DNA of 32,000 bases from contig JAMWCX010000001.1 in assembly GCA_023818895.1 (NCBI GenBank), positions 329,789-361,788 of the forward strand, in the 5' to 3' direction. The translations under genes were made by a program, and so were the position numbers. The notes beneath the pieces were generated by a model that saw only the letters and a program-made list of their open reading frames with translations, did not search any database and was not told where the DNA came from. Numbering within the stretch: position 1 is the first letter of the stretch; the number at the start of each line of letters is the position of its first letter. This document shows positions 2-31,799 of this stretch, one piece after another. This DNA comes from Candidatus Omnitrophota bacterium (GTDB lineage Bacteria > Omnitrophota > Gorgyraeia > 2-01-FULL-45-10).

Positions 2-3000
2 ACCGGGTATCGACGTGCCCCGCCATGCAGCCATGGCAAATCCCAGATCATCCAGGATCATCGTATCCGGGTCTGACCAGGCCGGATCGCGCGGATTTTG
101 TCTCATGGCGTCATCAACGACTATAACTCTTTTTATCAATCGGCCTTTATCCGCCAGAAGAACCTGTTTCGCCTGCGGATTTTCTTTTCGTAACTTTTTA
201 AGGAGAAAACTCCTGTAGCTCAAGAGCCGCTTATAGAATCCTGTCTCAGGCTCCGGCATATTACGGTTTGCGTATAACTGATACATATCTTCAATGTACT
301 GGCGCACAAAATGTTCCGGGTCGATACGGTCGGCCGACTGGTATCTGTTATGCGCCTTTACCCGATGGAAGTCCGACAGGGCGTCATAGGTAAGCACCCT
401 TTCATAATTATCGGCAAGAAAAGCCGCCAACCTCCCATTATCACTTATTATGCGTTCTATCGTATTCAGGTATTCTACTACTATACTGTCAACTATGGTC
501 GGCTCATAAAATTCATGATTCCGCTCGGCATAATAACCGTGTTTATTCTTTAAGACCTTTATAACTGGAACATCATCGCGAAGCTTTTCTAAAAGCTCTA
601 TTCGATCGATATCGTACCCTTCAAAAGTACGCGAACCTGCCTCCCAATCAGCTGAGGCATACGTAGTATCTTCTTCGTCCTTTTCCTCGCCGAAAGACGC
701 GAACCCATATCGGCTTTCCGCCCTCCCGCTTTCATTCGCCAGCATAACCACAAAATTAATCGCGAAATGAAACGCCGCCATTATCGCAAGGTATACTTGC
801 TGATCCATCATCGCAATCGGCAGAAGAGCCAATGAGGATACGGTAAGCAAAACCGGAGCGCGCATCCATTTTGATTCCTTGTCATAATGCAAAGCGATAA
901 ATACCAACCCCCAAATAAGGTATGACAATGTTATGCTGCCAAATAGGCCGGCCGTGAAATTAGGCAAAAGCCATCTGAAAATTGGTTCTTCAACAAGCGG
1001 CGCAATGAAAAGAGCCCTGATACGTTTACGCAAACCATGACTCATATTCGGTGTCAACAATTTAAGAAGTCTTGTTACCCCTGGACTGAAGGGCTTCGAA
1101 AATACGCTGTTTTTAGTCAGCAGACTCTTTAGCCAATCTAACCCCGCAACTATCTGCCCCCTTTCCAACATGTTTGTCAGAACGGCGGCATTATTTACAA
1201 TATGAAGCACATATCTGGCGGTATTCGACCGGTCGCCGTACACAGCCGAAAAAGAATTTATCCGTTCTCGATTGCTCAAGGCATTTCTTATGTCATTGTT
1301 GACTTTTACCGGTCCCTTTAAATATGCGGCAAGAGCAAATTTCAGTCGCTCAGAACGATCAGTTATCTTAGAGCTATAATTTTCAAATAACTTCAGCAGG
1401 TATGCACTGCCTGCCCCTACATTCTTCTCCGGCACAAAACGCTCGTCGAATTCCGCGACCCACTTCTTGTAATCCGCCGGATCATATCTAGAGCTATCAA
1501 GACCGTATTTCTTAACAAAATTCCTAGCGGCAAGCCGAAGGGCTTTCTCACCGTCACGGCCCGGCTTCCATTCGCGCTTTCCCTCCTTTATATTGTTGTA
1601 CCTGACTACCCTGACGGCGTGTTCCAGCTGGGCCTGCCAGCGCCTGTCTACGCTAAGCCCCATCTCTACAGCAGCAGGCCCGAGAAGCTGCATGAGTCCA
1701 ACTGCGCCGACTGAAGATACAGCGAAGGGATTGCCATTCGATTCGCGCCGTATGTGGGCAAGCACAAGAGCTATATCCGATATTTCAGGAGCGAAAGTCT
1801 TTTCATATCTTTCTTTTTGGGGTTCGACCTGTTCTCTTTCGGTCTTTTCAGGCAGGATTTCTGCCGGCCGATTTTGATCCGTAGCATTCTCTTTCTGCTC
1901 TATACCTACAGGTTCTATTTCATCATCAGGCGGGTTTATTATCCTCAGCGACATCTTCGGCAAAGTAAATGACATCATTACCAACCCTATTAGCGCCATA
2001 ATGTTAAGAATTTTATTGCAAATCTCTCCTTTAATCCCCATGGGAGGGAGCGCGCTTATCGCTTCGTATTTATCCATATCCCCCCGCTCCACTCCTCTCT
2101 GCACCTGTCTGCGATAATCATCGGAGAATAATAATTTTAATAGGATAACTCCGTCTAAACCTATCGGCAGTATCGCAAATGCGAGGTTCATGTATGCGTA
2201 AATACCCAAGAAAAAACCTACAGGGCTGTCAATATGCAGAAGCAATCTCGCCACAACTTCTGATATTATAAATAAGGCAAAATGCACCGGATAAGGTGCC
2301 GCTATTATCTTTGCGAGTTTTCTTGACACATCAGGAGTGCCCTTCAAAAATCCGAATTGAACACTCACAAGCGTCTGAGGATCATACCCGAGCTCTACGC
2401 CATCGGCACCGTTACTAATGGCCACGATCGCATGGGCTGTCTCATGCACCATAAAGGTAAGCAACAGGACGAGCGCCATCAGTCCCAAAAAAGGCAATAA
2501 GTCCACCTCCAGATCGCTTAAATAAACGAAAAATACCGGCAGGGCCGCGACTATGTTTAAGCGCGCGCGAAAATGTTTTGCGGATTTTCCCGGTGGGCCT
2601 GAGCGGGAAACTTTTTTTGTGACCACGAAGGGAAGTCCCTGCGATGCTTCAAAGGAGTCTCCAAGATATTTTACAACTTTGCTTCTCATTTCGCTGTCTA
2701 ATATCCCTATACCCGGTAATATGCAGCGGCCTCCTGGCTTAAGAACTCGCCTTATCTCTCTAAAGGTCCTTGACAGCTGTGTGTCAGTAAAATATTCGAA
2801 GACTCCCAACTCATAGACAACATCGAAGTAATCATCGGGATAAGGCAAGTGCTCGGTTATGTCCCCTTTTACCAGTTTTACGTCCTTGGCCTCCGTATTC
2901 TCCAAGGCAATATCTATGCCGAATGCTTCCACCTTTTTGCCGTAGACGGCCTTTAACCCTTCGATCGTGTTTCCGCGTTCACCGCAGCCGAGATCAAGGA

Positions 3001-6000
3001 CCCTAACCGTGCCAGAGACGCTGTTGATAGCATCGTTTATGGCACTCTTTATCGAAGAGGGCAGCTCGTCATATGCCCTGTTTGACATTCCTGGCTCCGA
3101 CGAATGAAAGAGCCTTGCAACAAACTCCTTTTCCGCCGCTGACACCACAAAGCGCTGCAGAAGATCCTTCATTTCTTTTGGTGTAATATTATTAGATATT
3201 ATGGAGGTTATAAGCCACCAGGACTTTGTCTTGATCAATTTGTCCCTCAGGCTGTCCGGCACGACAGGACCCTTATCCCCCACGCTCTTCGATCTGAGAT
3301 ATTCAAATATCTTGATATGCTCGTCAAATGGGATCGGGTCTTTATCAGAATCGCGCCATACCTTCAGATAAAAGCCGAGATTCCATATCTCGAGCTCCTC
3401 CACCGTCATTCCTACCTTTCGGAGTATCCTGTCTATCTCCTCAGCATCTGGAACTCCGGTCTTCTCATGGTCATACGCTTCAGGCACATCATACACCAAT
3501 CCAGACTCTTGCGCCCTGCGAAGCGCGCCAGCCTGCTGTAAATCTGATATTTTGTTAGTCGAGGCGACATTTACAACAAAATCGAATGCGAACAATCCGA
3601 AGATGGCATAAAGAACCGCTTTTACCGATGATGATACAGCCGGATAGCTTAACAGCAGATTTGACACCCCTGGCATACCGGAAGCGATGAACAGCAATAT
3701 AGAAAAGGCCGCTATTCCCATTCCGAGCGGCGCTGCCAAAAGAACACGAAGCGGATTTTTGAAGTTTTCGCCTTCAGGTGCGCGATACGCGCCGCCTACG
3801 ATCCTGCCGCCCTCACGGATGATCTCGATCCTGCCCCTGAAGCCGTCCGCCAGCGCGTGTAAGAACTCGTGGGGATAAACCACTAGCATCGACAAGAAGT
3901 TGCCGATAAAGGGAATGCGTGATAAGTGGCGGGCGGTAAAGCTGTAAGCCTTTCCATGCATTGGAGGCTGCATATTATCCAGAAGATATCCGCTGAGCCA
4001 TTTTACGTCATCGATTCTGACAGGGTTTATGTTTTGGATGAATGGATCCCTGCTCAGGCCCAAGGCCGGCGCGTGATTCCCCCCGATTAACACGAGAAAT
4101 TTCTTAGCAGGGTATTTTCGCGTCAGCGCTTCAAGACGTTTCGCCGCAACCTCGTTACGCGCCTTAAGCATCTCCTCCCTGACAAGAACGGCCTTCTGGT
4201 GGAACCTCTTCAGTTCTTCCCTTGAGGCCGATATCCTGATCGCAGCTTTTAAGAGGATCTGCCGTACCTCATCCTCCGGAATACCATAAAGTATTTTCGC
4301 GGTCTGCACAAAAGGATTGAACATTAGCGGAAACGGCGGATCTCGGTCTGTCTTTGCGCCCCTGGCCAATAAGCCCTTAACGACGAGGCTCAGGTGGTCG
4401 TGCAATTGTGGAAAAAGGGATGCGGCCAAGATATCTTCCTTGGAAAGGCCTGTTCTTCTTATCAGTATCTCGAGAACCTCGACATCGCCCTGAAGAGGGA
4501 TTATATCTTCAACCGGTATATTGAGATCCCTGCTCAACTTATCGGCTATCGCCACATCTGCTAGCGAGATCGGCATGCCCGTCTTTCTTCGGTCGGGCAA
4601 AGACTCCGCAACAATTACCCAATCCTGCGGATTCCGAATTATTGACCTGCTTATAGCAAGGATCTCGTCGGCTGCCCTCGGCGAACCGTGCGTGCCCGCA
4701 ACAACCTCCATGGGGGTTCCATACAATGTTATGGAATAACGCTCCGCGCCCCCGCTGGTTATAGTCGACGGCATAGGGCCGAATCTAAGTTCAACCTGGC
4801 TTTTGTGTTCGGCAAGAGATTTGTAAGTTCTTTCAACGCGTATATACGGAACGACAAGGAACGCGGTTATTGCCGCCACCGCAAGAAGCACAGCCGATAT
4901 GATTATAGCCCTGAACGGCGCATGTCTTTCTTTCGCAGCCTGTTTTCCCTGCACAGGAGGCGCGCGCGGCCCTGCCGGCTGAATAACAAAACGCGCTTCA
5001 ATCTCGCCAAGGTACCGCTCGGGGAGGCCCAGTTCTTTTCGTATATCATCAAGAGTCAGACGGTCGCCCTTATTGGCAACAACAACGCGGACCTTCTTGG
5101 CGGCTGCCCGTCTCGCCTCTCTTTTTTCAAGCTTAGGTAGCCCTTCAAGCGCTCTGGCTATGTCCGGAATGGTGGTATCCCTATTAAGCGCCAGACGACC
5201 TGCCGACGACCGTCCCATTCCCTGACCTAGATGAAGCGCCATCGCAAGCCTTACACCGTCCTCCTCGCTTAAACCATACCTTTTAACGAGCGCATCCAGG
5301 TCAATATCTTCCAGAGGAGTTCCCGTGGCAAGCTGCCGACGAGCCTCACGGATTGCGGCGTCAAGACCTGTCGAAGATACCTTAGCATTTGACCTTCCTC
5401 TTGCCTTAACGACCTCGATCGGATCCAGGCCGCCCCTAAAGGATTCGTCGTTAACAAGCGCCTCTACCAGGCCGGCCATCCCTGGAATCTCCAGATCAGC
5501 CGCCTTCACATATTCATCTCTCTTCATGGTATTAAGTTTTTCTCTAAACCACTCTGTCATTCCTCGCTCGCGTATCAGAGGAATGTATTCGGGCATCCTA
5601 AGTTCGTTACGCAGCCTTTCCCATTGCGCTTTGTTTACACGGCGCGCAAGCTCTTTTACACGGTCCTCGTGAGCCTTAAGCTCATCCTCCATCTGCGGTA
5701 TATACTCATCCGACCCTTTTCTCGCATCGTTATGCCTCATCGCTAAATAAATTATCCGCTTCTCGATGACGGATAGTCTCCTCTTTGTATTTAAGAGGTG
5801 GTCGGCTATGGCCAATCTTACATCCTCGTCGCTTGCGTCCGGCCACACTTCTATCCACGAGCCATCCTCCGAAAAAATCACCCTGCATAAGCCGGGAATG
5901 TTCATAGGGGTTTCAATATAGCGGACAATCTTAGAATACTCCGCGTCAACCAGCTGTTGCAACCTCGTCAGGTCCATTAGCGCCGGCTTGTCCGACACCT

Positions 6001-9000
6001 GCTCAGCCGGAATAGATACAGCCTTTTTGCCGGAAATCAAGCGACGGGCCATATTGATTATCTTTGCCCAGAAGATGGATATCAAGATAAGAGGAAAAAC
6101 GTATTTCAGGGCAAACAAACGCAGGCCTTTGGGAGATAAAAAATATGGCTTTAAATCTTCGACGCGCTGCGCCTTTACATGCTCAAGCCTAAAGTCAGCT
6201 AAATTGGAAGAGCATCTTACCGCGCCCTCGTATGAGGCTATATTTTTCGCATTTACCGTCCTCACCTCATAGCCCAGACCTTCCCATATCTTACAGGCTC
6301 GGGCGTCCATTAAGTCGTAACTGTATACAGGCACCAAAGCGACCCGATCCCGCAGGATAACAGCATTGTTATAGGTAATAACCGCCCCTTTGCCAGCCAC
6401 AGTCAGGCCGTACCATGGAAGCGCTGTGACCTTCATTCCTATATCGGTAAGCTCTCTTACCGTCTCGTCCAGTTTCCCAAGAACGCTTGTAAGGCCGCTT
6501 AAATCAAAGCTATAGGCATCAAATCTATCGCAGAAATCTACCAGCGCCTTCTTGAGATCTTTATCGCTAATCTCGGTTTCAACTAAGTATCTTATGTTCG
6601 TCAGCGCAACTTCTATATTGGTAATATGGTTTTTAATGCTTTGTTGCTGTGCCACCGAAATAGAAAATGGCTCTCCTTGTCTTAATATCTCTACCGTTAT
6701 ATCTTTTTCTGTCATAAATTTATCGACATAATCCCGCAACTCATCATATGCAGAAATGTCCAATCTTGCCAAATCAACAGCGGCCTGTTCCAGAAAAGCC
6801 TCCAATCCCATCTTCGGCGAACCTACAAGCGCCACACCTTCCTCCAGAAGCGTGACTTGGGTATCTATATGCGATTTCTCTATGTATGACGGTAAAAGAT
6901 GCAGCTCAGCCTCAAAGAAATCAGTGGCGAAGCGTTTTATGGTCTCCAGAACATCCTCTTTCGTATCAGCTGTTGCCAGCTCCAGGTTTAACCATACGGT
7001 ATGCTCGCCTATGAACAGGTGTTTTTTACCGCCTATCTCAGATACCAACAGGTCGCCTCCGACTAAATCGAATGGCAATTCCACCAGCTTCGCCCCTATG
7101 GCAGCCGCCACTTCCGAAGCAACGGTATAACCGTCGCTTCGGCCATCTTTACCCAACGACTTCATGTGCTTTGAGACGAGCACAAGGCCGGCATCATCCG
7201 GCCCTTTAGCGTAAATAAAAGGATCTCTAATCCATATGGGTACGGCGGTGTATGTCAAATCAGGATACGAAGCGAATATGCTCTTGTGTATAGATATCGC
7301 CTTCACCTTAATGGGCTTCTCCTTCTTGACCTTTTTTATAAGATTCTTGAGATCATCCGAAAAAGACGAATCAAGGACCACGAGGACCTCTGTGTCATCA
7401 GGAAGAGATCTGAATAGCTCCATATAATAATCATCGTAAAGGCTGTCATATCCGATTATGATACCGTTTCCTTCCTGTTTATAGGAAGGCGGCAGGTTTA
7501 TACGCTGATAATTAACCGTATCATTTGGTAATGAAGACTCGCTAATGACGGCATCCGATTTTAATGCCACGTTGGTAATAACAGGCTGTGCTAGCGGCGC
7601 GGCGCTGAGAATGGGTGCTGTTCTGAGCAATGCCCCGATAATAGCCATGCTTATCAAATAGCCGGCGCCTCGCCTACCTCTCCGATTCTTGCTGTCCACG
7701 GGTAACTCTCCATGCCGCTGCGCTTTACTGGTAGACATATCAGATCCAGCCATGCCTGCCATCAAATTAGGGGGCGCGCTTATAGCTGCGGCCGCGAGGC
7801 CTAGACGATTTAAATTACTGGCTATAGCTAGCGCGGATAGGCCGCTCGACTGCGCCAGCTTTATGAATTCGGCGTAAGGATTGCCTGAGAGCAGTTTGAA
7901 ATATGGGCTCTCATATCCGGCGCCGTTTCTGAAATTCGGCAGGATGGATATGTAAGAGATATTGTTTTTCTTGAAGAGCTCGCAGAGGTTCTCGGTGTGA
8001 AAGCCTCCGGTGACCACAACAGCAACTTGAGGCCTGACGGCCTGACGATGCGAGGGCCCTTTACTAAATCTGATATTCTTTATGAAAGCTTCGTCGCGCT
8101 TCATGGAATATTCATAAAACTTAGCCATCTCTTCTCGATTACGGTCAAGACCCTCTATCTCGATACTGAGCCTTGCTTCTATGCCATGTTTCGGCGCTTC
8201 CCGTCTTATGAAGTCTATGTAATTTTTGGCGTTGAATGACTCCTCGTTTGCCTGGTAATACGCGTAGTCCGGGCGAGTCAATGTGGCGTTGAAAAGGTTC
8301 TTCATGAGGGCAAGATTCTTGGAAAGAAGGACAAGATCGCGCTGCGTATCATTTTCGCACAGCGACTCTTTCAGCCGCGACTCGAGATCTTCTATCTCCG
8401 CCATCGCTTTAAGATTGTCGACCGCCTCATAGCGCGATATATAGTTGATATAAGCGTAAAACTGCGAGAAATCCTTCGTCTGTATAGAGAGTGCCGCTGC
8501 CTTGGTCATCAGATATGAGTAAAAATCTTTCTGGGATATCCTATTGGCCCGTAAGGCAACTGTCTTGGCTACCAGCTCCTCTACTTCGCTTCGCGAAAGC
8601 GCATTCTGAAGAACATCGATCAACTGATCGCGCTCAATATTAGCCTTTTTGAAATCAATACCGGCCTCCTGCTCAAGCGACTGCTTCAAAAGACCCAGAT
8701 TTTTAAACGCCGCGATATCGACCGATCTTCTCTCTGCGAGCGTAATGAGATGCGAAATATAGTCTCTAAACGGAAGGCTGCCTGACTTGAATTGCGAATA
8801 GGCAACATCCAGATCGAGAAGCTCCTTAGAATATATCTTGAGTTTTAGGGCAGCGAGAACGCTGCTTAATGCCCTGAGGCCCGCGTTCACGCTCTCTTTT
8901 TCACGTAAAGAATTTTTGTAAACCTTAAGGTTATCGAGATAAAGCCGCGGCTCTTCTATCCCCCACAGCGTGATTCTGCCTGGATTATTAATGGCAAAAT

Positions 9001-9490
9001 ACTCAGCTCCGTTTAAAAGACCCTCTTTTACAAAATTATCCGCGGCCTTATGCCTTATCTCCGCATCTTGAATATTTGTGAACAATGAAATATCATAATC
9101 CGCCTCGCCCCCCTCAAGGTTAACTATGCTGGCGCCGTAAGCGGCGCTTAAATAGTCAATAATCTCAGCGATTTTTATCTGTGCGTTATAGTTACAATGA
9201 GCATCCTGAATGTGAATAATAGTCGGGGGCTGTGAGGCAAGAGCCGGTAGATGAGGCGCTGACCATGAACTTTTTATCGTCCCGAGATCGTGCGGTAGGT
9301 AAAATGATTTTATGTCAAATTCTTCCGACTCGGACAGCGGTGAAATAAAATCAGATTTTTCTGCCCATACAAGATCTGCGGGAAGGCATGTGCAGAGAAA
9401 TGCGATAAGGGTAATAAATGCTATTATCCTTATTGACAGCGTGAACCGGAATATTATATCCCTGCGGATATTTGAGCTCGCGTCTTTCAT
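2..9490 (-). CDS. Giant multidomain membrane protein. N-terminus complete, C-terminus beyond the window edge (at least 3163 codons in window). Absent from the supplied ORF track.
   Basis: ATG at 9488-9490 (minus) is preceded by an in-frame TAA 18 nt upstream. Manual translation of the reverse complement, in the frame whose codons have lowest coordinate = 2 mod 3, met no stop down to position 2. Every recognisable motif listed below lies in that same frame. Any in-frame stop would have produced a complete minus-strand ORF in the track, and none is listed. Confidence 0.9.
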   Translation of the reverse strand, partial: MKDASSNIRRDIIFRFTLSIRIIAFITLIAFLCTCLPADLVWAEKSDFISPLSESEEFDIKSFYLPHDLGTIKSSWSAPHLPALASQPPTIIHIQDAHCNYNAQIKIAEIIDYLSAAYGASIVNLEGGEADYDISLFTNIQDAEIRHKAADNFVKEGLLNGAEYFAINNPGRITLWGIEEPRLYLDNLKVYKNSLREKESVNAGLRALSSVLAALKLKIYSKELLDLDVAYSQFKSGSLPFRDYISHLITLAERRSVDIAAFKNLGLLKQSLEQEAGIDFKKANIERDQLIDVLQNALSRSEVEELVAKTVALRANRISQKDFYSYLMTKAAALSIQTKDFSQFYAYINYISRYEAVDNLKAMAEIEDLESRLKESLCENDTQRDLVLLSKNLALMKNLFNATLTRPDYAYYQANEESFNAKNYIDFIRREAPKHGIEARLSIEIEGLDRNREEMAKFYEYSMKRDEAFIKNIRFSKGPSHRQAVRPQVAVVVTGGFHTENLCELFKKNNISYISILPNFRNGAGYESPYFKLLSGNPYAEFIKLAQSSGLSALAIASNLNRLGLAAAAISAPPNLMAGMAGSDMSTSKAQRHGELPVDSKNRRGRRGAGYLISMAIIGALLRTAPILSAAPLAQPVITNVALKSDAVISESSLPNDTVNYQRINLPPSYKQEGNGIIIGYDSLYDDYYMELFRSLPDDTEVLVVLDSSFSDDLKNLIKKVKKEKPIKVKAISIHKSIFASYPDLTYTAVPIWIRDPFIYAKGPDDAGLVLVSKHMKSLGKDGRSDGYTVASEVAAAIGAKLVELPFDLVGGDLLVSEIGGKKHLFIGEHTVWLNLELATADTKEDVLETIKRFATDFFEAELHLLPSYIEKSHIDTQVTLLEEGVALVGSPKMGLEAFLEQAAVDLARLDISAYDELRDYVDKFMTEKDITVEILRQGEPFSISVAQQQSIKNHITNIEVALTNIRYLVETEISDKDLKKALVDFCDRFDAYSFDLSGLTSVLGKLDETVRELTDIGMKVTALPWYGLTVAGKGAVITYNNAVILRDRVALVPVYSYDLMDARACKIWEGLGYEVRTVNAKNIASYEGAVRCSSNLADFRLEHVKAQRVEDLKPYFLSPKGLRLFALKYVFPLILISIFWAKIINMARRLISGKKAVSIPAEQVSDKPALMDLTRLQQLVDAEYSKIVRYIETPMNIPGLCRVIFSEDGSWIEVWPDASDEDVRLAIADHLLNTKRRLSVIEKRIIYLAMRHNDARKGSDEYIPQMEDELKAHEDRVKELARRVNKAQWERLRNELRMPEYIPLIRERGMTEWFREKLNTMKRDEYVKAADLEIPGMAGLVEALVNDESFRGGLDPIEVVKARGRSNAKVSSTGLDAAIREARRQLATGTPLEDIDLDALVKRYGLSEEDGVRLAMALHLGQGMGRSSAGRLALNRDTTIPDIARALEGLPKLEKREARRAAAKKVRVVVANKGDRLTLDDIRKELGLPERYLGEIEARFVIQPAGPRAPPVQGKQAAKERHAPFRAIIISAVLLAVAAITAFLVVPYIRVERTYKSLAEHKSQVELRFGPMPSTITSGGAERYSITLYGTPMEVVAGTHGSPRAADEILAISRSIIRNPQDWVIVAESLPDRRKTGMPISLADVAIADKLSRDLNIPVEDIIPLQGDVEVLEILIRRTGLSKEDILAASLFPQLHDHLSLVVKGLLARGAKTDRDPPFPLMFNPFVQTAKILYGIPEDEVRQILLKAAIRISASREELKRFHQKAVLVREEMLKARNEVAAKRLEALTRKYPAKKFLVLIGGNHAPALGLSRDPFIQNINPVRIDDVKWLSGYLLDNMQPPMHGKAYSFTARHLSRIPFIGNFLSMLVVYPHEFLHALADGFRGRIEIIREGGRIVGGAYRAPEGENFKNPLRVLLAAPLGMGIAAFSILLFIASGMPGVSNLLLSYPAVSSSVKAVLYAIFGLFAFDFVVNVASTNKISDLQQAGALRRAQESGLVYDVPEAYDHEKTGVPDAEEIDRILRKVGMTVEELEIWNLGFYLKVWRDSDKDPIPFDEHIKIFEYLRSKSVGDKGPVVPDSLRDKLIKTKSWWLITSIISNNITPKEMKDLLQRFVVSAAEKEFVARLFHSSEPGMSNRAYDELPSSIKSAINDAINSVSGTVRVLDLGCGERGNTIEGLKAVYGKKVEAFGIDIALENTEAKDVKLVKGDITEHLPYPDDYFDVVYELGVFEYFTDTQLSRTFREIRRVLKPGGRCILPGIGILDSEMRSKVVKYLGDSFEASQGLPFVVTKKVSRSGPPGKSAKHFRARLNIVAALPVFFVYLSDLEVDLLPFLGLMALVLLLTFMVHETAHAIVAISNGADGVELGYDPQTLVSVQFGFLKGTPDVSRKLAKIIAAPYPVHFALFIISEVVARLLLHIDSPVGFFLGIYAYMNLAFAILPIGLDGVILLKLLFSDDYRRQVQRGVERGDMDKYEAISALPPMGIKGEICNKILNIMALIGLVMMSFTLPKMSLRIINPPDDEIEPVGIEQKENATDQNRPAEILPEKTEREQVEPQKERYEKTFAPEISDIALVLAHIRRESNGNPFAVSSVGAVGLMQLLGPAAVEMGLSVDRRWQAQLEHAVRVVRYNNIKEGKREWKPGRDGEKALRLAARNFVKKYGLDSSRYDPADYKKWVAEFDERFVPEKNVGAGSAYLLKLFENYSSKITDRSERLKFALAAYLKGPVKVNNDIRNALSNRERINSFSAVYGDRSNTARYVLHIVNNAAVLTNMLERGQIVAGLDWLKSLLTKNSVFSKPFSPGVTRLLKLLTPNMSHGLRKRIRALFIAPLVEEPIFRWLLPNFTAGLFGSITLSYLIWGLVFIALHYDKESKWMRAPVLLTVSSLALLPIAMMDQQVYLAIMAAFHFAINFVVMLANESGRAESRYGFASFGEEKDEEDTTYASADWEAGSRTFEGYDIDRIELLEKLRDDVPVIKVLKNKHGYYAERNHEFYEPTIVDSIVVEYLNTIERIISDNGRLAAFLADNYERVLTYDALSDFHRVKAHNRYQSADRIDPEHFVRQYIEDMYQLYANRNMPEPETGFYKRLLSYRSFLLKKLRKENPQAKQVLLADKGRLIKRVIVVDDAMRQNPRDPAWSDPDTMILDDLGFAMAAWRGTSIPG
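740..1010 (-). other. Giant protein aa ~2828-2915: CPBP/Abi (CAAX protease-like) intramembrane glutamic endopeptidase domain
   Basis: Motif 1 APLVEEPIFRWLL (EEPIFR 974-991), motif 2 FIALH (FxxxH), and motif 3 AAFHFAINF (HFAIN 755-769). All are embedded in hydrophobic segments. Confidence 0.75.
1185..1800 (-). other. Giant protein aa ~2565-2770: SLT (family 1) lytic transglycosylase domain
   Basis: IALVLAHIRRESNGNPFAVSSVGAVGLMQLL, with the catalytic-type Glu codon at 1742-1744 and GLMQ ending at 1688. Downstream is KFALAAYLKGPVKV (1301-1330), which matches the AYNxGxxxV motif. Confidence 0.85.
2090..2530 (-). other. Giant protein aa ~2320-2465: M50 (site-2 protease)-like intramembrane metalloprotease module
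   Basis: HExxH inside a hydrophobic helix: LMALVLLLTFMVHETAHAIVA (HETAH 2432-2446). A second family motif follows downstream: YMNLAFAILPIGLDGVILL (LPIGLDG 2150-2170). Compare NxxPxxxLDG in SpoIVFB/RseP-type enzymes. Confidence 0.7.
2690..3080 (-). other. Giant protein aa ~2140-2265: class I SAM-dependent methyltransferase domain (Methyltransf_11-like)
   Basis: Motif I VRVLDLGCGERG (2972-3001), post-I AFGIDIA, motif II YFDVVYELGVFEYF, and motif III REIRRVLKPGGRCIL (LKPGG 2729-2743). Confidence 0.85.
3560..3900 (-). other. Giant protein aa ~1865-1975: HExxH membrane module (M50B-like putative metalloprotease)
   Basis: VVYPHEFLHALADGFRGRIEIIREGG, with HEFLH at 3857-3871. It is followed by hydrophobic spans LRVLLAAPLGMGIAAFSILLFIASG and VKAVLYAIFGLFAFDFVVNV. 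The HExxHAL-x4-G-x-I pattern resembles Peptidase_M50B. Confidence 0.5.
4050..4770 (-). other. Giant protein aa ~1575-1810: Tiki/TraB/GumN-like module 2
   Basis: EVVAGTHGSPRAADEI (4679-4705), DWVIVAESLPD, and KKFLVLIGGNHAPALG (4058-4090). Compare TraB LVGTAHFS ... VMVELC ... VVGMGHVPGI. Confidence 0.5.
6200..7471 (-). other. Giant protein aa ~674-1096: guanidino-group-modifying (pentein) domain, agmatine deiminase / Porphyromonas-type peptidyl-arginine deiminase-like
   Basis: Colinear series matching the agmatine deiminase / PAD_porph motif order: PIWIRDPF (W-I-R-D 7223-7234), DLVGGDLLVSEIGGKKHLFIGE (V-G-G-D 7052-7063), SHIDTQVTLLEEG (H-I-D 6863-6871), ITYNNAVILRDRVALVPVY, and ASYEGAVRCSSN (Cys codon 6212-6214, at the position of the catalytic Cys in GGGxHCxTQ / GxRCMS). 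A helical insertion of about 130 aa follows the HID motif. Confidence 0.6.
7976..9238 (-). other. Giant protein aa ~85-505: Tiki/TraB/GumN/ChaN-superfamily-like module 1 with a long helical insertion
   Basis: TIIHIQDAHCNYNAQ (9191-9220), IVNLEGGE, and VAVVVTGGFHTENL (7985-8017). These resemble the paired GxxH and acidic-strand motifs of TraB/GumN proteins (hhGTxH ... VELD ... VGxGHhxG). Motif-level only. Confidence 0.4.
9362..9490 (-). other. Giant protein aa 1-43: N-terminal signal peptide or signal anchor
   Basis: Basic N-region (MKDASSNIRRD), then hydrophobic IIFRFTLSIRIIAFITLIAFLCTCL, then PADLVWA/EK, which resembles an AxA-type cleavage site. Confidence 0.6.
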
Positions 9491-9552
9491 CTCAAATATT
9501 ATCTTACTTTATATAAATCTAACACAATGCATAAAAAAATTTAAGTAACTAG

Positions 9553-9580
9553 ATTATATCATAATTAATTACTTAGTCAA
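9553..9580 (-). promoter_or_regulatory. Near-consensus sigma70-type promoter upstream of the giant gene
   Basis: Minus strand reads TTGACT (9575-9580), a 16-nt spacer, then TATAAT (9553-9558) with TG extension (TGATATAAT 9553-9561). It sits in a very AT-rich tract about 60 nt upstream of ATG 9490. Confidence 0.5.
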
Positions 9581-9862
9581 GTTAATATATCTTACTTTTT
9601 TAAACCCTAACAAATAGCACCAATATATTTATTTATCTAATGTATGGACTTATCGCGCACTATTAGAACATGCGGTATTCCTATTTAAATTATAGTGGTA
9701 AGCGAATTTGGTCAGGTTGCTTTGGCTGGTATAACTAGGTTCCGTAGCCAGCTCGGCTGCTGTCGCGCATAGCGCTTTTCCTCGCTATTCGCTCGGCGCG
9801 GCCTTGCTTCGAATCCCCCTTTTCGGAGATAAAAAATCAATACGCTGACAAGCGGTTAATAC

Positions 9863-9974: not shown

Positions 9975-10034
9975 AAATCGGCTTCGATTCCCTTGCTTGG
10001 GAAAATCGCTAACTGGAGCTAGCGGAGGGAATCG
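9975..10034. repeat. Copy 1 of an exact 60-bp direct repeat. Contains an orphan copy of the last 21 nt of tRNA-Thr (10014-10034) plus 39 nt of its 3' flank.
   Basis: aaatcggcttcgattcccttgcttgggaaaatcgctaactggagctagcggagggaatcg is identical to 10113-10172 (period 138 bp). No complementary 5' acceptor strand lies nearby, so this copy is not a functional tRNA. Confidence 0.9.
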
Positions 10035-10112: not shown

Positions 10113-10172
10113 AAATCGGCTTCGATTCCCTTGCTTGGGAAAATCGCTAACTGGAGCTAGCGGAGGGAATCG
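10113..10172. repeat. Copy 2 of the exact 60-bp direct repeat. Overlaps the genuine 3' end of tRNA-Thr (10152-10172).
   Basis: Identical 60-mer to 9975-10034. Within each copy, cgattccct and agggaatcg are inverted and could pair. Confidence 0.9.
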
Positions 10173-23468: not shown

Positions 23469-24269
23469 CTATATCAGCCTCTTGTCCCTAAACGCCTTTA
23501 TGTAGCCAGCGCAATACTGGTCCTCATTGAGCAAGACAGCCGATGCAGCCATCGCGGAAGAGATATGTCTATCGGTAGGATCAAGGATCGCCGCATCAAG
23601 GCCTGCGGCGGCCGCCATCGATAGGAAAGCGGCGTTTACAGTGCCTCTATGAGGCAGGCCGAATGATACATTCGAAAGGCCGCATATCGTCTTTACATTG
23701 CCGAGCCCCTTTATCGCGGGAATCGCCCTAAGGAACTCTAACGCCTGGCCAGGTTCAGTTGCCACGGGTCTTATTAGCGCGTCAAAATAAAGGTCCTCGG
23801 TATTGAATCCGCCCTTTTTGACATGCTCAACTATCTTCTTAGCTATCTCAACTCTTTCGGCGGCGCTATTCGGCATCCCTTTTTCATCCATGGTAAGAGC
23901 AATGAGTTTGGTCTTGTATTTTACAGCCATTGGGAGGATTTTAGCAATCCTTGGCTCTTCACCTGTTATCGAATTTATGAAAATTTTTCCTTTGCCCTTA
24001 TAGACCGTCAAGGCCTTTTCGATAGCACGATAATTGGGGCTGTCTATGCAGATATTTATTTCCGGGATCTCGCTCTGCAGAACGCTTATAATCCAATCCA
24101 TATCCTGCAATTCGTCCCCCGTTGTGACGGCACAGTTTATATCGATGTAATCGGCTCCGGCCCTCAGCTGAGCGGAAGCCTCCTTAAGTATATGAGCGGC
24201 ATTCCGTGCCTTGATCGCTTCCTCTATGCGCGGCCTGGTTGAGTTTATCCTCTCTCCTATAATAAGCAT
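23469..24269 (-). CDS. Pterin-binding methyltransferase, second AcsE/MeTr-like paralog
   Basis: MLIIGERINSTR, DYIDIN, LSNVSFGLP, and C-terminal YCAGYIKAF. Colinear with AcsE but more divergent than the 26070-26858 copy. Confidence 0.7.
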   Translation of the reverse strand: MLIIGERINSTRPRIEEAIKARNAAHILKEASAQLRAGADYIDINCAVTTGDELQDMDWIISVLQSEIPEINICIDSPNYRAIEKALTVYKGKGKIFINSITGEEPRIAKILPMAVKYKTKLIALTMDEKGMPNSAAERVEIAKKIVEHVKKGGFNTEDLYFDALIRPVATEPGQALEFLRAIPAIKGLGNVKTICGLSNVSFGLPHRGTVNAAFLSMAAAAGLDAAILDPTDRHISSAMAASAVLLNEDQYCAGYIKAFRDKRLI

Positions 24270-25208
24270 CTACTTCTCCCTTAATTGTTTTTCATAACTG
24301 GACTCGATAGTTTTCACAAGGTTGGTCAGCACCTCGTTTATAGGTGTCGGAATCGCGAGCGCCTTCGCCTGCCGTACTATCGCGCCGTTGATGAAATCTA
24401 TCTCCGTCTTCTTTCTATTGAGGACATCCTGTAACATGCTCGATACATTAGACGCTGTCGCCCTGCAAACCGACTCCACCTTCTGTATAGGATCGTCATA
24501 AGATAGCTTTATACGCTTGCGCTTGACGAGCCTGACCGCTTCCTGTACGGCGCAGCGCATCACCTGACGGCACTCATCATACTCCACCAGGGCGCCGTTA
24601 TTAAGCCGTGTAACGGCGGTCAAGGCATTTATACCCGCGTTTATTATAAGCTTGCTCCATATGACAGATTCTATATCTTTCGATATTTTGGTCTCGAAGC
24701 CGGCTTTTGAAAGAACATTCGCCACCTCACGTATGGCGCCCAGCACCCTGCCATCCGCTCTGCCGATTGTAGTGTCGGCCTTACCCGCATGGCGCACGTG
24801 CCCAATACCGAGCAAGGTTGCTCCATGATTTGTCACCCCCGCCATTACTTTTTCGGCTCCGAACTGGTCGTTCATTATTTGCACGTTGCCTATGCCGTTC
24901 TGAAGCGTCAATACGCTCGTAGAGGTCCCAACTAGTTCCTTAATATCCCTGCAAGCCTCTTCTGTTGAGTAGCTCTTTACGCACAGAATAACAAGATCGC
25001 AAACGCCAATATCCTTGGCGCTAGAGGCGGTGTTTACCCTGGCCGTAAATTGACCGCTCACCCCTTCTACCTTTATGCCGTTTTCGGAAATCTTTTTGGC
25101 CCTCTCCGGCATATTGTCGAAAAGCCAGACATCCTCACGCGTCCTGTTCTTTATGGATGCAGCGAGCAGACATCCCAGCGCTCCAGGCCCTACAACGACT
25201 ATCTTCAT
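24270..25208 (-). CDS. panE: 2-dehydropantoate 2-reductase
   Basis: MKIVVVGPGALGC Rossmann N-terminus and ApbA/PanE-type C-terminal domain (WSKLIINAGINALTA). Confidence 0.8.
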   Translation of the reverse strand: MKIVVVGPGALGCLLAASIKNRTREDVWLFDNMPERAKKISENGIKVEGVSGQFTARVNTASSAKDIGVCDLVILCVKSYSTEEACRDIKELVGTSTSVLTLQNGIGNVQIMNDQFGAEKVMAGVTNHGATLLGIGHVRHAGKADTTIGRADGRVLGAIREVANVLSKAGFETKISKDIESVIWSKLIINAGINALTAVTRLNNGALVEYDECRQVMRCAVQEAVRLVKRKRIKLSYDDPIQKVESVCRATASNVSSMLQDVLNRKKTEIDFINGAIVRQAKALAIPTPINEVLTNLVKTIESSYEKQLREK

Positions 25209-25216
25209 GATATCTC

Positions 25217-26059
25217 CTAATCCTTCATGAGCTTCGAAAACTCTTCTTCATTTATCGCGAAGGTATGCTCCGCAGCTGGAAAAGATCCTGTCTCCACTTC
25301 AGACTTGTACTTCTTGAAGGCCTCCAAGATCAACGGCGCAAGCTTGACATACTGCTTTACAAACTTAGGGACAAACCTGTCAAAAAGGCCCACCATGTCA
25401 TTGGTAACGAGAACCTGTCCGTCGCAGTAAGGGCCTGCGCCGCAGCTTATAGTCGGAATCGAAATCCTCTCCGTGATAAGCTTTGCGACCTTGTCCGGCA
25501 CGCATTCCAGCACTATCGCGAAACACCCCGCCTTCTCAAGAAGACGCGCGTCATCGAGAATCTTGCGCGCCGCTTCTGCCGACTTTCCCTGTATCTTATA
25601 GCCGCCAAGCTTCGATACCGTTTGGGGGGTAAGCCCCAGATGGCCAAGAACCGGAATACCGGCATTGACTATAGCCTTTGTAACGCCAACGACTTCGCTT
25701 CCGCCCTCCAGCTTAACCGCATCACAGCCGGCTTCTTTCATGAAACGGCTGGCGTTGCGTATAGCATCTTCGTTAGAGACTTGGTACGACATGAACGGCA
25801 TATCGCCTATGAGGAGGGCATACTTTGTCCCGCGCCGGACAGCCTTTGCGTGATGTATCATCTCGTCCATAGTGACAGGCACGGTCGACTCGTAGCCCAG
25901 AACAACCATACCGAGAGAATCGCCCACAAGGATCGAGTCTATTTCTGCGTTATCAACAAGCTTCGCCATCGGATAATCATAGGCGGTAAGCATCGTTATC
26001 TTCTTGCCGTCTCGTTTTTTGGCCTGCAAATCCGTTATCGTAATTTTCTTGCGCTCCAT
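25217..26059 (-). CDS. panB: 3-methyl-2-oxobutanoate hydroxymethyltransferase
   Basis: LTAYDYPMAKL, LVGDSLGMVVLGY, and GHLGLTPQ motifs. I prefer ATG 26059, which has GAGGAG 6-11 nt upstream. The track's GTG 26104 would overlap acsE by 35 nt. Confidence 0.9.
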   Translation of the reverse strand: MERKKITITDLQAKKRDGKKITMLTAYDYPMAKLVDNAEIDSILVGDSLGMVVLGYESTVPVTMDEMIHHAKAVRRGTKYALLIGDMPFMSYQVSNEDAIRNASRFMKEAGCDAVKLEGGSEVVGVTKAIVNAGIPVLGHLGLTPQTVSKLGGYKIQGKSAEAARKILDDARLLEKAGCFAIVLECVPDKVAKLITERISIPTISCGAGPYCDGQVLVTNDMVGLFDRFVPKFVKQYVKLAPLILEAFKKYKSEVETGSFPAAEHTFAINEEEFSKLMKD

Positions 26060-26069
26060 CTTTTCTCCT

Positions 26070-26858
26070 CTATTTCTTTCTATAAGCGTCCAGGAATGAA
26101 TCACAGTATATATTCTTGTTTAGTATCAACTCGGCTGTTATCATCGCGTCCATGAGCTCCTTGTCAAGAGGGTCGAGAATCGCGGATGTGAGACCGTTCG
26201 CGATAGCCATAGTAAGGAATGTTCGGTTGACAAGGCTGCGGTACTTTGTACCCTGCGAAACGTTGGAAAGCCCTATCGTAGTATTGGGCGCCGGATCGCA
26301 TAGCATCCTGAATTCCCGCAACGATTCGATAACCTCATGCCCCTGAGTCTGCGCGACATTCACAGGAAGAACTATAGGATCAAGAAAAAGGTCCTCAGTA
26401 TTGATGCCGTACTCCATCGCCTTAGCCACTATGGCCGCGGCGAGCTCCAGCCTCTTATCCTTCGAATTCGGGACGCCGGACCTGTCCATCGCAAGCCCTA
26501 TGACCTGCGCGTTGTATTCTTTTGCCAGCCCAAATATCCTGGACATCTTCTCCTCATCAGCGCTGGTCGAATTTATTATAGCCCTCTTGGAGACAAGCTT
26601 CAGCCCTTCTTCGATAACCTCTGGCTTGGTCGAATCAAGGGCAAGCGGCACGCTTACAGTTTTCTGTATCGCCTCAACAAGCCACTTCATGTCATCCACT
26701 GGATTCTTAGAGTAGGGGCCGGTATTCACATCTAGCACTTGGGCCCCTGCCTTTACCTGATCCTCAGCAAGGTGCTGAATCACATCTACCTCCCTATTAT
26801 CTATGGCCCTTGCCACATCTTTGAACATCCCGTTGATCAGCTCGCCTATTACTATCAC
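26070..26858 (-). CDS. acsE: Methyltetrahydrofolate:corrinoid/iron-sulfur protein methyltransferase
   Basis: MIVIGELINGMF, LDVNTGP, INSTSA, DPAPNTTIGLSNVSQG, and NKNIYCDSF. Closely colinear with Moorella-type AcsE as I recall it. GTG start in a GTGA overlap with acsD. Confidence 0.85.
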   Translation of the reverse strand: MIVIGELINGMFKDVARAIDNREVDVIQHLAEDQVKAGAQVLDVNTGPYSKNPVDDMKWLVEAIQKTVSVPLALDSTKPEVIEEGLKLVSKRAIINSTSADEEKMSRIFGLAKEYNAQVIGLAMDRSGVPNSKDKRLELAAAIVAKAMEYGINTEDLFLDPIVLPVNVAQTQGHEVIESLREFRMLCDPAPNTTIGLSNVSQGTKYRSLVNRTFLTMAIANGLTSAILDPLDKELMDAMITAELILNKNIYCDSFLDAYRKK

Positions 26859-27787
26859 GTCTTAGCCCCTTTCATTATAATACCTATATACCTTTCAACC
26901 GCCTTTGCCGCGTCGGGATGGCGCATGACCAGAAGGTCTGCTCCGGCCTGAACAAGCGAAACGGCTGTCGCGATCTCCCAGTTTATGCCCTGGGTCTTGA
27001 CCGACTCTTTGGCCTCCTTGGTCTTCCATACTTCCTGACCCACAAAAAGGACAAAAGGCATCGCGAGCATCCTGTCGCCTATAAACGCGGCAAGCCTTCC
27101 GCGCTCCATTATCGAATAGACATATTCCATGCCATAGCCTAAGGAGGTGGTGGTCGGATGCATAATGATCCTTTTCGGATCGAACCCCATATCGCTTATA
27201 AGTATGTTCACCTGTTTCGCTATGTTGATATCTATCGGCGACTCGGCGATCAGTGAATGGCCATCCGCCAGAGCGGTTGCTGTTAGCGTCTTATAGTTTG
27301 ACTGCGTAGCAGTACCAAGAAGACAATTATGCCCTTTAAGAGCCTGACTCACCTTAGGCATGGAGTCATTATCTATCTCGTCATCGCCACACCCTAAAAC
27401 GATAAGAGGTACTTTTGTCACCGCCAATATAGCTTTTACAATCTCTGCCGCTTCGTCTGCCGGCCTGCCCCCGTAATCAGGATGCATTCCCTGCAATCGT
27501 ACGCATAGAATCTTGGCGCCGAATCTACCAACGCATGCCTTAGCCCATGCCACAGGGTCCTTGATCGCTTCCCCGTATGCTTGCCTGACACTCTCTGCCC
27601 AGTCATCAGGCTGGTAATCCGCTATCTCCAGAGCAACTACAGGAGGATTGGGGCAATCTCCTTCTTCAAAAAGTAGCGGCAGGCAACTCTGACCCCCTAT
27701 TCTAACAGCGGCGCCAACCCCTCCCCCGCCGATCTCAACCATATTTATCGGAGCGCTGCACTTTTCCTTAATAAGTTCTATTGACAT
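26855..27787 (-). CDS. acsD: Corrinoid iron-sulfur protein small subunit (AcsD / CdhD-like)
   Basis: 310 aa. Sits between cooC and acsE, as in the Moorella acs operon order acsC-orf7-acsF-acsD-acsE. GGAGAA Shine-Dalgarno before the ATG. Called mainly on size and synteny. Confidence 0.7.
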   Translation of the reverse strand: MSIELIKEKCSAPINMVEIGGGGVGAAVRIGGQSCLPLLFEEGDCPNPPVVALEIADYQPDDWAESVRQAYGEAIKDPVAWAKACVGRFGAKILCVRLQGMHPDYGGRPADEAAEIVKAILAVTKVPLIVLGCGDDEIDNDSMPKVSQALKGHNCLLGTATQSNYKTLTATALADGHSLIAESPIDINIAKQVNILISDMGFDPKRIIMHPTTTSLGYGMEYVYSIMERGRLAAFIGDRMLAMPFVLFVGQEVWKTKEAKESVKTQGINWEIATAVSLVQAGADLLVMRHPDAAKAVERYIGIIMKGAKT

Positions 27788-27788
27788 A

Positions 27789-28523
27789 TTATTTCTCCGT
27801 CAATTTGTCCACAATCCGCTCTATTTCATGCTGCACGGCTTTGCTTTTAAACTCAAAGATGCTCTTATTTGAAACACTCCACCGAACAAGCTCCTTACTG
27901 TACGGCACCTCACCCGCCACCTCAAGTCCGGTCTTTTCTATATCCGATTTCAGGACAGATAAAGGACCGGATACCCTGTTGACTATTAGGTATGCGCTTC
28001 CGATCTTTATCTTGAGATCCATGGCAAGATCGTAAATCTTCTTCGTCGAACGCACTCCCGCAACCGAATAATCACTCACAAGGACAAGCCTTGATATCTG
28101 ACCTGTCGTCCTGCGGGAAATATGCTCCATACCGGCGGCGTTATCTATTATCACGAAATCGTAGTTTTTCGTGATCCTGCCTATTATGTCCCGCAGGAGG
28201 CTGTTGACATAACAATAACAACCCGGCCCTTCGGGCCTGCCCATCACAAGAAGATCGAAAGCATCGGCTTCCGCAAGCGATTCCTGAACCCTCATCTCAA
28301 TAAAACGGTCTTTCGTCATGCCCGACGGGATGGTGTCCATATGTCGGGATATATCTTCGCATATACCAACAATCGTCTGGGCATCATGAACTCCAAGGGC
28401 GTCCGCAAAACAAGAATTCGGATCAGCGTCTATGGCGAGTATTGAAGTCTTGCCCTCAGCGGCCAAACGCGCCGTTATCAAGGCCGCTATCGTCGTCTTC
28501 CCCGTTCCGCCCTTTCCGTTCAC
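27789..28523 (-). CDS. cooC: CO dehydrogenase/acetyl-CoA synthase nickel-insertion ATPase (CooC/AcsF family)
   Basis: Deviant Walker A GKGGTGKTT and EGPGCYCYVNS (CxC metal site). The track start is GTG 28523. See the finding on a probable upstream ATC start at 28541. Confidence 0.85.
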   Translation of the reverse strand: MNGKGGTGKTTIAALITARLAAEGKTSILAIDADPNSCFADALGVHDAQTIVGICEDISRHMDTIPSGMTKDRFIEMRVQESLAEADAFDLLVMGRPEGPGCYCYVNSLLRDIIGRITKNYDFVIIDNAAGMEHISRRTTGQISRLVLVSDYSVAGVRSTKKIYDLAMDLKIKIGSAYLIVNRVSGPLSVLKSDIEKTGLEVAGEVPYSKELVRWSVSNKSIFEFKSKAVQHEIERIVDKLTEK

Positions 28524-28525
28524 CG

Positions 28526-30421: not shown

Positions 30422-31759
30422 CTAATCCTTCCAGCTCCTCAAGTAATTAGTGATTCCGGAGGCTTCACGCGGCCCTACGGAAACCTTCCAGCCGGATACT
30501 TCCTCGAGTTTTCCGCTTAAGACCGAGACATATCCCGGTATGGTCACCTTGCGATGCGAGACCTTGCCCTCGATCCCACTCTTTTTTAAAGTATCCGCTA
30601 TTTTTTCGGCTGTGAACTTCTCAGCGGCCCAAGCTGTGAGTACGGACATGCCTTCCGAGTCGCAACAAACGATATAAGAAGGAACTTTGCTCGCCTCTAC
30701 CTCCGCGGCGACTGTAAAATATGTTATCGAAAAATTCGTGGTTACCAAGACGGGCGATTGTCTGGTGACCTTGCCGATCTCGTAGACCTTTGCTTCAACC
30801 TGTACCGGTTTCTGCGGATCCTGATATATGTCCTGCCGCGCGACCAAAAGAGGATAGACAAAGTCCCTGTCTGTATTCTTCACTATGATAATACCGGCAT
30901 ATTTTGTCACATAGGTCACGGCTTCGGCAAGCTCAAGGACAGGGTCGCTTTCCTCGGTAAAAGCCATGACTGGATAACCTAAAGGCCTGAAATTCTTTTT
31001 TAATGCGCTGCGGCGTATATATGTAAAATACTGTATCCGCTTGGAAAGCCTCTTCTCGCTAAGATTTATGACTATCTCATCTACGCCGGCCGCCTTCGCC
31101 GTAGTCGTGATCTCGGCTGTCTCTTCAAGGCTCGCGCAGGAAATAGCCATAGGCACACCGAACTCCTTCGCAAGGTTTATGAAGGCCGTCGAAGAGGCCT
31201 TTTCGCCGCAAACTATAAGCGGCCTTTTTTCACGGCATAATTTCAGCGCCTCCGCCATTGTCCCTTCATCATCACCGTATAAGGCTATGGCCAGCTTCGA
31301 GACCGCCTCAACGGTACTAACCGCTGCCAGGAATTTATTCCTATATCCGGATGTGTTTTTTACACAAACGAGATCGGGCCTGATCACTTGCCCGACGCGT
31401 TCAAACCTCAGCTCGTTTATATTCTCTAAAGTCTTACTGATCTCTTCCTTGCTCAACGTATCATCAATAAGAAATCCTATGGCACATGGATGATGAAACT
31501 TCTGCTCGTGCCTATACATCACCGTTTCGTTGCCCACCTCAAATTTCGCGCCTTGGACTCCCACCGTGACAAGCTTTATAGGCGGCTGGCTCGCGCTTTC
31601 AAGGGCATCCCGCGCCTGAGCCGAAACATGAGGACACTTTTCGAGCGAGACCTTCTTCTGGGCAAGCGCCATCGCGAAAGCAAGGCAGGTGGCAAAACCG
31701 CAGTCTTTGCAATTTGTCTTCGGCAAAAGTTTATATATATCAAGTCCCGATAATGCCAT
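30422..31759 (-). CDS. acsC: Corrinoid iron-sulfur protein large subunit (AcsC / CdhE-like)
   Basis: N-terminal [4Fe-4S] motif LPKTNCKDCGFATCLAFAMALAQKK...CP, followed by TIM-barrel and corrinoid-binding parts. I prefer ATG 31759, which has GAAGGGGG upstream. The track starts at TTG 31774. Confidence 0.85.
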   Translation of the reverse strand: MALSGLDIYKLLPKTNCKDCGFATCLAFAMALAQKKVSLEKCPHVSAQARDALESASQPPIKLVTVGVQGAKFEVGNETVMYRHEQKFHHPCAIGFLIDDTLSKEEISKTLENINELRFERVGQVIRPDLVCVKNTSGYRNKFLAAVSTVEAVSKLAIALYGDDEGTMAEALKLCREKRPLIVCGEKASSTAFINLAKEFGVPMAISCASLEETAEITTTAKAAGVDEIVINLSEKRLSKRIQYFTYIRRSALKKNFRPLGYPVMAFTEESDPVLELAEAVTYVTKYAGIIIVKNTDRDFVYPLLVARQDIYQDPQKPVQVEAKVYEIGKVTRQSPVLVTTNFSITYFTVAAEVEASKVPSYIVCCDSEGMSVLTAWAAEKFTAEKIADTLKKSGIEGKVSHRKVTIPGYVSVLSGKLEEVSGWKVSVGPREASGITNYLRSWKD

Positions 31760-31799
31760 ATAAGCCCCCTTCAATCATAGACAAAACCCTTTCTTAAAG

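Follow-up and report, generated by a model that had tools for sequence, protein, structure and literature searches.

We analyzed the window introduced above (the whole stretch of 32,000 nucleotides from contig JAMWCX010000001.1 of a Candidatus Omnitrophota bacterium), whose left part is occupied by a minus-strand gene for a giant multidomain protein, hereafter the query (Table 1). An earlier note on this DNA had described an SLT lytic transglycosylase domain with a preserved catalytic Glu in a protein of more than 3000 amino acids (aa) that also carries proteases. It had offered two functions for the domain, namely local wall remodeling for the insertion of a large apparatus and degradation of another cell's wall. 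Sequence comparisons identify the domain as a genuine SLT (GH23) family 1 lytic transglycosylase domain, and the size of the protein, at least 3163 aa, agrees with the note. Protease-like modules are likewise present: an S2P/M50-like module, a second HExxH module of the DUF3267 kind, and a CPBP/Rce1-like module, which scored 22.1 bits against PF02517, slightly below the Pfam cut-off of 22.4 bits.

Table 1. Features of the giant gene, with positions in the window and residue numbers in the encoded protein
Feature	Position	Strand	Remarks
Giant open reading frame, at least 3163 aa	2..9490	minus	ATG start at 9490; 3163 sense codons, open to the left end of the window
N-terminal signal-anchor (aa 18–36) and module of ~570 aa	7658..9490	minus	defines an Omnitrophota family of proteins several thousand aa long
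S-adenosylmethionine (SAM)-dependent methyltransferase domain, aa 2162–2258	2717..3007	minus	PF08241, 57.2 bits; matches methyltransferases in the PDB
S2P/M50-like four-helix membrane module, aa 2301–2454	2129..2590	minus	HETAH (2432–2446), LDG (Asp2446)
Hydrophobic segment, proposed export anchor, aa 2490–2515	1946..2023	minus	Kyte–Doolittle hydropathy 1.81
Glu/Pro-rich linker, aa 2516–2569	1784..1945	minus	54 residues, of which 12 are Glu and 7 Pro; low pLDDT
SLT (GH23 family 1) lytic transglycosylase domain, aa 2570–2795	1106..1783	minus	Pfam PF01464, PDB matches, AlphaFold2, Foldseek
Catalytic Glu2583 codon (E-S motif)	1742..1744	minus	aligned with the Glu of MltE and MltC; column Glu in 64/64
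GLMQ motif, aa 2598–2601	1688..1699	minus	G, M, and Q invariant; L in 63/64
Subfamily-specific insertion of ~69 aa, aa 2612–2680	1451..1657	minus	three predicted helices
AYLKG, equivalent to AYNxG but with Leu for Asn	1313..1327	minus	Y and G invariant; N in 62/64
NTARYV, counterpart of motif IV (ETxxYV)	1208..1225	minus	Tyr2760 kept; Glu replaced by Asn2756
CPBP/Rce1-like membrane module, aa 2813–2917	740..1054	minus	EEPIFR, FIALH, HFAIN

Identification of the SLT domain

In a hidden Markov model search, PF01464 (gathering cut-off 21.3 bits) matched the whole protein with 49.3 bits (E = 4.4e-13) and a 267-aa fragment with 57.9 bits (E = 9e-16), which is far beyond chance. The peptides quoted in the earlier note were exact in letters and position: RRESNGNPFAVSSVGAVGLMQ is aa 2581–2601 of the minus-strand reading frame, with the codon of Glu2583 at 1744..1742, and AAYLKGPVKV is encoded at 1330..1301 on the minus strand. 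The folded domain extends slightly beyond the range given there, 1185–1800, to about 1106. Searches against PDB sequences with phmmer and with a two-sequence profile returned MltC, MltE, and MltF; RRESNGNPFAVS...GLMQ aligned with the E-S...GLMQ block of Escherichia coli MltE and MltC, and PEKNVGAGSAYL...AAYLKG with the motif III region of the same two enzymes. Glu2583 pairs with the E-S Glu of MltE (AIESGGNP) and of MltC (MQTESSFNP). Among NCBIfam models, those for MltC, MltF, Slt70, EmtA, and a flagellar lytic transglycosylase matched partially, all far below their cut-offs; together with the Pfam match, this places the domain in family 1 and in no named subfamily.

To judge the motif columns, we aligned the query with ordinary SLT proteins (64 sequences in all). 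The query kept every invariant SLT column (E2583, S2584, S2592, A2596, G2598, M2600, Q2601, Y2723, and G2726), so that the catalytic Glu was not misaligned; Tyr2760 of motif IV was also kept, as were the Thr and Val of ETxxYV. Among the signatures named earlier, E-S and GLMQ are indeed present, whereas the supposed AYNxG reads A-Y-L-K-G, with Leu2724 where Asn stands in 62 of the 64 sequences. In motif IV (N-T-A-R-Y-V), Asn2756 occupies a position held by Glu in 60 of the 64. The corresponding Glu of Cj0843 from Campylobacter jejuni (E498) hydrogen-bonds the acetamide of N-acetylmuramic acid (MurNAc)-1 and is thought to assist cyclization (PMC5951611), and therefore the exchange of Glu for Asn could change rate or specificity.

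The AlphaFold2 model, built with the 64-sequence alignment, had a pLDDT of 89.8 and a pTM of 0.85 and showed the lysozyme-like alpha-helical catalytic fold. The best 50 Foldseek matches in the PDB were all lytic transglycosylases (MltF, Cj0843, Slt, MltE, MltC, and MltD; probability 1.00), with TM-scores of 0.4–0.5, probably lowered by an insertion within the domain.

The insertion and its distribution

From the Gln of GLMQ to the next core Tyr, the query has 95 residues, whereas 62 ordinary SLT domains have at most 43 (median 26). The ~69 additional residues, which come after GLMQ and before the next core helix, break the Pfam match into two parts. The insertion was modeled as three helices (model residues 61–80, 90–106, and 116–121), with a pLDDT of 93–98 over most of its length. 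We searched 1.84 billion representative proteins exhaustively with the SLT region using HMMER. At E ≤ 0.001 there were 249 matches, and only three reached E ≤ 1e-10: P0121 (5935 aa), P0001 (3569 aa), and P0122 (a 322-aa fragment). Among the matches listed, nearly all beyond these three aligned in at least two stretches flanking the insertion. Identity over the SLT region was 51% for P0121 and 41% for P0001, the latter with a local score of 162 bits against the query; identity over the insertion (P0121 52%, P0001 46%, P0122 32%) was similar to that of the core.

At 32–52% identity, all four insertion-bearing sequences keep the catalytic Glu-Ser, Ser2592, G.MQ, Tyr2723, Gly2726, and Tyr2760, and motif III lacks Asn in the relatives as well (AYLKG, AYFQG, and SYKEG). 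P0122, a fragment from the TARA 0.1–0.22 um fraction, combines the insertion-bearing SLT with a C-terminal LysM domain, a pairing that supports peptidoglycan as the ligand. A rival possibility is that the domain is a non-cleaving module that binds or senses peptidoglycan and anchors or positions the giant protein at the sacculus. Such a module could have lost Asn in AYNxG and Glu in motif IV, both conserved in more than 93% of the sequences, could tolerate GPMQ (P0001) or GYMQ (P0122) in place of GLMQ, and could accommodate a large insertion beside the active-site helices. It would not be expected to retain the catalytic Glu, however, and yet this residue, its Ser, and other core residues persist in all four sequences; Asn2756 could also still hydrogen-bond the acetamide. 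We therefore regard a purely binding role as unlikely, and the domain is probably catalytically competent.

An insertion at the same site, but Cys-rich, was seen in membrane-anchored SLT proteins of ~400 aa, namely P0125 and, from its cluster, P0389 and P0390 (named Candidatus Pacearchaeota, DPANN archaea), as well as P0227, which resembles them. A peptidoglycan-cleaving fold is odd in a wall-less archaeal lineage such as Pacearchaeota.

Relatives and the N-terminal module

P0121 (GCA_964352425.1) and P0001 (MBN2453658.1, from an Omnitrophota metagenome-assembled genome) have both the N-terminal module and a collinear block of M50-like module, hydrophobic segment, linker, and SLT in common with the query. 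The block spans aa 2292–2830 in the query, 3697–4206 in P0121, and 1481–1989 in P0001, and over ~520 aa it is 48% and 31% identical to P0121 and P0001, respectively. Elsewhere the modules are shuffled: their order and combination differ among the three proteins, and the methyltransferase and C-terminal region of the query are missing from the other two. The CPBP module follows directly after SLT in the query, lies 640 aa away in P0121 (64% identity between the two modules), and is absent from P0001. HExxH and xDG are kept in five homologous M50-like modules, and the homologous module of P0067 matched Pfam Peptidase_M50 and DUF3267 weakly. Module identities to P0121 and P0001 are similar to those of the rest of the protein, which we read, together with the identities over the SLT region and the insertion, as a sign of purifying selection.

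These comparisons bear on whether the SLT match is an artefact, either because the motifs match by chance or because a chimeric or mis-assembled reading frame includes an SLT that does not truly belong to it. An assembly effect may be present in P0121, whose aa 1195–1564 and 2891–3260 form a near-identical internal duplication of ~370 aa at an offset of 1696 aa, which may have arisen by recent duplication of a module or as an artefact of assembly. Conversely, the E-values of 1e-13 to 1e-16, the 3163 sense codons without a stop, the collinear block in two proteins from independent metagenome-assembled genomes, and the uniform GC content (giant gene 0.48, SLT region and remaining window both 0.49) make an artefact scarcely credible.

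The N-terminal module (query aa 1–611) was found in all 121 members of a family of at least that size, all 1.7–5.9 thousand aa long and from Omnitrophota, whose payload domains are otherwise very different. Its conserved core lies at 7790–9322, with the invariant residues QDAH.NY, EGG, RD, and GGFH. Among the 120 best full-length homologues (listed lengths 1742–5352 aa), all 30 with an organism name were Omnitrophota, and only the N-terminal ~570 aa were common to them (16–18% query coverage, ~50% identity). The module had no Pfam match, and no PDB match with a single sequence or an 11-sequence profile; a TraB/Tiki-like assignment, considered from the motifs HIQDAH, NLEGGE, KRDEAF, and TGGFH, was thus unconfirmed. 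Downstream payloads in the family include kinases, HATPase, M48 with UbiB, methyltransferases, phosphatases, GNAT, TPR, and HEAT. SLT occurs in two of the 121 besides the query, and other wall-cleaving payloads are a SleB-like Hydrolase_2 near an M50-like module (P0067) and an RlpA-like DPBB_1 (P0091).

Within the query, the second HExxH module (~aa 1548–1960; window 3600–4850, minus strand; PHEFLHAL at aa 1874) is followed by two helices and has homologues in P0001, P0121, and P0002. Before this module lies a GTHGSP...GGNH region, whose motifs resemble those in the N-terminal module. A guanidino-modifying (deiminase-like) domain at aa 634–1126, suspected from AVRCSS, was dropped for want of Pfam or PDB support. 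A Pfam scan detected no SecA domain in the available 3163 aa.

Predicted membrane topology

In the hydropathy profile, the chain from the methyltransferase to SLT contains five predicted helices. The methyltransferase requires SAM and was therefore taken as a cytoplasmic marker of topology. Helices 1–4 form the M50-like module, which has an N-terminal flank of +5 and ends in an Arg-rich segment placed in the cytoplasm; the charges flanking it follow the positive-inside rule. The helices that carry HETAH and LDG would run from outside to inside, with both motifs close to the cytoplasmic end, as is expected for an S2P protease. The fifth helix (aa 2490–2515) is proposed to carry the chain outward. 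A hydrophobic segment after the M50-like module was present in all three SLT-bearing proteins and in none of three without SLT (P0002, P0067, and P0073), which suggests export to the periplasm. In P0001, SLT lies between a signal-anchor-like segment (NKKPIIVKIAR...AQA) and a strong helix, after which comes KKP.

Neighboring genes

All genes upstream of the giant gene (10.2–32 kb) lie on its strand and are of the housekeeping type, including those for NAD(P)HX dehydratase, AcpS, PdxJ, CdaA, FolP, FtsH, TilS, MnmA, and ApbE, pantothenate genes, and three tRNAs. No secretion or pilus genes were found in the 22 kb upstream, and no phage genes in the window. The genes of P0001 and P0121 are likewise neighbored by ordinary metabolic genes. 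A Wood–Ljungdahl cluster (23469–31774, minus strand) with three genes for CdhD-family corrinoid Fe-S proteins, pterin-binding methyltransferases, a RACo activator, and a CooC-like ATPase adjoins the pantothenate genes, and its gene content points to an acetogenic-type metabolism of the Omnitrophota host.

A perfect 60-nt direct repeat (9975–10034 and 10113–10172, copies 138 nt apart) lies upstream of the giant gene. The copy at 10113–10172 consists of the last 21 nt of tRNA-Thr and 39 nt downstream, and the other stands just before tRNA-Tyr and the giant gene. This resembles an att-type duplication of a tRNA 3' end and is possibly a scar of integration or excision. The ~370 nt directly upstream of the giant gene (9491–9862) are AT-rich (GC 0.36, compared with 0.49 elsewhere) and contain an imperfect 52-nt direct repeat (9500–9551 and 9588–9639, 71% identical).

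Possible role of the SLT domain

On balance, we consider it probable that the domain is a catalytically competent SLT variant that, held in a tethered periplasmic loop, cuts the producer's own sacculus locally. In this model, the chain would leave the cytoplasmic methyltransferase and cross the membrane four times in the S2P/M50-like module, with both ends of that module in the cytoplasm, before the further hydrophobic segment takes it outward. The Glu/Pro-rich linker would then space SLT away from the membrane, and the CPBP-like helices would return the chain into it, leaving SLT as a periplasmic loop tethered to the membrane of the producer. As the single acid/base, Glu2583 would protonate the glycosidic oxygen of the β-1,4 bond between MurNAc and N-acetylglucosamine and then activate the C6-OH of MurNAc to yield 1,6-anhydroMurNAc. 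Owing to the tether, only nearby glycan strands would be reachable, and the sacculus would hence be opened or turned over locally around the giant protein. We favor action on the own wall because the export-type segment before SLT and the membrane helices after it suggest a tethered loop, because Omnitrophota make ordinary peptidoglycan (their genomes encode its complete synthesis; 10.64898/2026.06.07.730766), and because of the gene content upstream. As for the remodeling function offered by the earlier note, local remodeling fits the tethered architecture better, whereas the large apparatus that it was to serve is not evident.

Several points weigh against this model. Two polar residues that more than 93% of SLT domains have in common are replaced in the query, and activity or specificity may differ as a consequence. 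The topology was derived from hydropathy and charge rules only, and topology predictions have been found unreliable for such giant proteins (10.1101/2023.11.21.568195). LRKRIR precedes the CPBP EE-helix and would be cytoplasmic by the positive-inside rule, and the count of C-terminal helices is ambiguous; the CPBP literature is not decisive for this side, in that bacterial CPBP proteases can act at periplasm-proximal sites. The window covers neither the C-terminus of the giant protein nor the genes downstream of it.

Alternatively, SLT could act as an offensive enzyme that degrades a host or prey wall. This would be possible only if the domain were released, perhaps through cleavage by the intramembrane protease-like modules on either side of it, or shown at a cell–cell contact with closely apposed envelopes. 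The phylum includes a cultured episymbiotic or predatory member, and SLT domains of giant proteins have been read in this way, as in the interpretation of the Omnitrophota 'Archaeovorin' (10.1101/2023.11.21.568195). Furthermore, the S2P-like and CPBP-like modules that flank SLT have intact motif residues, and myxosortase, a bacterial CPBP protease, provides a precedent in cleaving proteins for surface sorting (PMC11980579). Hydrolase_2 and DPBB_1 show that different wall-cleaving payloads occur elsewhere in the family, and the replaced substrate-contact residues could reflect a foreign substrate. However, membrane helices tether SLT on both sides, secretion genes were not among the upstream genes, the CPBP module is not linked to SLT in P0001 and is distant in P0121, and the Wood–Ljungdahl genes do not indicate a predatory lifestyle. 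An offensive SLT would also need to pass the outer membrane of the producer, and the β-1,3 bonds of archaeal pseudomurein are not known to be cut by lysozyme-fold enzymes. We thus hold an offensive role to be unlikely. Although the sequence proves neither of the two functions offered earlier, attack on prey seems less likely than action on the own wall. A self-processed effector with altered glycan specificity, in which a membrane-bound polyprotein would cut out its lytic domain for use against a host or prey envelope, appears very unlikely.

The presence of SLT in Omnitrophota giant proteins is already known (10.1101/2023.11.21.568195), and P0001 is annotated at NCBI as 'transglycosylase SLT domain-containing protein'. 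What appears new is the rare insertion-bearing form with both replacements (Asn to Leu and Glu to Asn), the fixed pairing of SLT with an S2P-like module and an export anchor, and its occurrence within a family of proteins of 2–6 thousand aa defined by a common N-terminal module. If active, this domain of ~230 aa would be a small expressible handle on whether, and on whose, walls the very long Omnitrophota proteins act, which has so far only been speculated on. For the lytic transglycosylase field, a rare insertion form and an example confined by an inner-membrane tether with S2P-like pairing would be of modest interest; otherwise, the query adds one further case to the SLT domains previously reported from this phylum.

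Comparison with known systems

SLT has been listed as a 'less common domain' in Omnitrophota giant proteins (West-Roberts et al. 2023, 10.1101/2023.11.21.568195). Like the query, Archaeovorins belong to this phylum, are long, have many transmembrane helices, and carry SLT as one of numerous enzyme domains, but they exceed 30,000 aa, contain SecA-DEAD and preprotein-binding domains, and often adjoin type II secretion-like genes. The query, with at least 3163 aa seen and no SecA in that part, and its relatives of 3.5–5.9 thousand aa belong to a different family, the one defined by the conserved N-terminal module. Virion-associated or endolysin SLT domains of phages (for example phrog_669 and phrog_2013) also occur within very long multidomain proteins; their profiles matched the query (E = 2e-9 to 4e-7) more weakly than did cellular lytic transglycosylases.

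Specialized lytic transglycosylases of secretion systems, flagella, and pili (VirB1, EtgA/IpgF, and FlgJ/SltF type) open the wall locally to make space for one machine to which they are tied, and are small proteins encoded in the operon of the apparatus. Unlike these, the query has no apparatus operon upstream, and the only related NCBIfam match was the flagellar lytic transglycosylase BB0259, at 22–26 bits compared with a cut-off of 234.

The query has the fold, E-S, GLMQ, A-Y-x-x-G, and the motif IV Tyr in common with MltF (PDB 5AA1 and 4P11), MltC (4C5F), MltE/EmtA (2Y8P), and Slt70/Cj0843, and presumably also the single-Glu mechanism of family 1 that gives 1,6-anhydroMurNAc. It differs from the Gram-negative family 1 enzymes in the extra three-helix insertion after GLMQ and in the replacements of Asn by Leu and of Glu by Asn, and it lacks the accessories of the subfamilies (the SBP domain of MltF, DUF3393 of MltC, the lipobox of MltE, and the superhelix of Slt70). 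MltF (family 1E) is the nearest structural neighbor only, since SBP_bac_3 is absent and PRK10859 scored 23–32 bits compared with 354. Whereas the known enzymes are soluble proteins or outer-membrane lipoproteins, the SLT of the query is predicted to be a loop inside an inner-membrane protein of more than 3000 aa.

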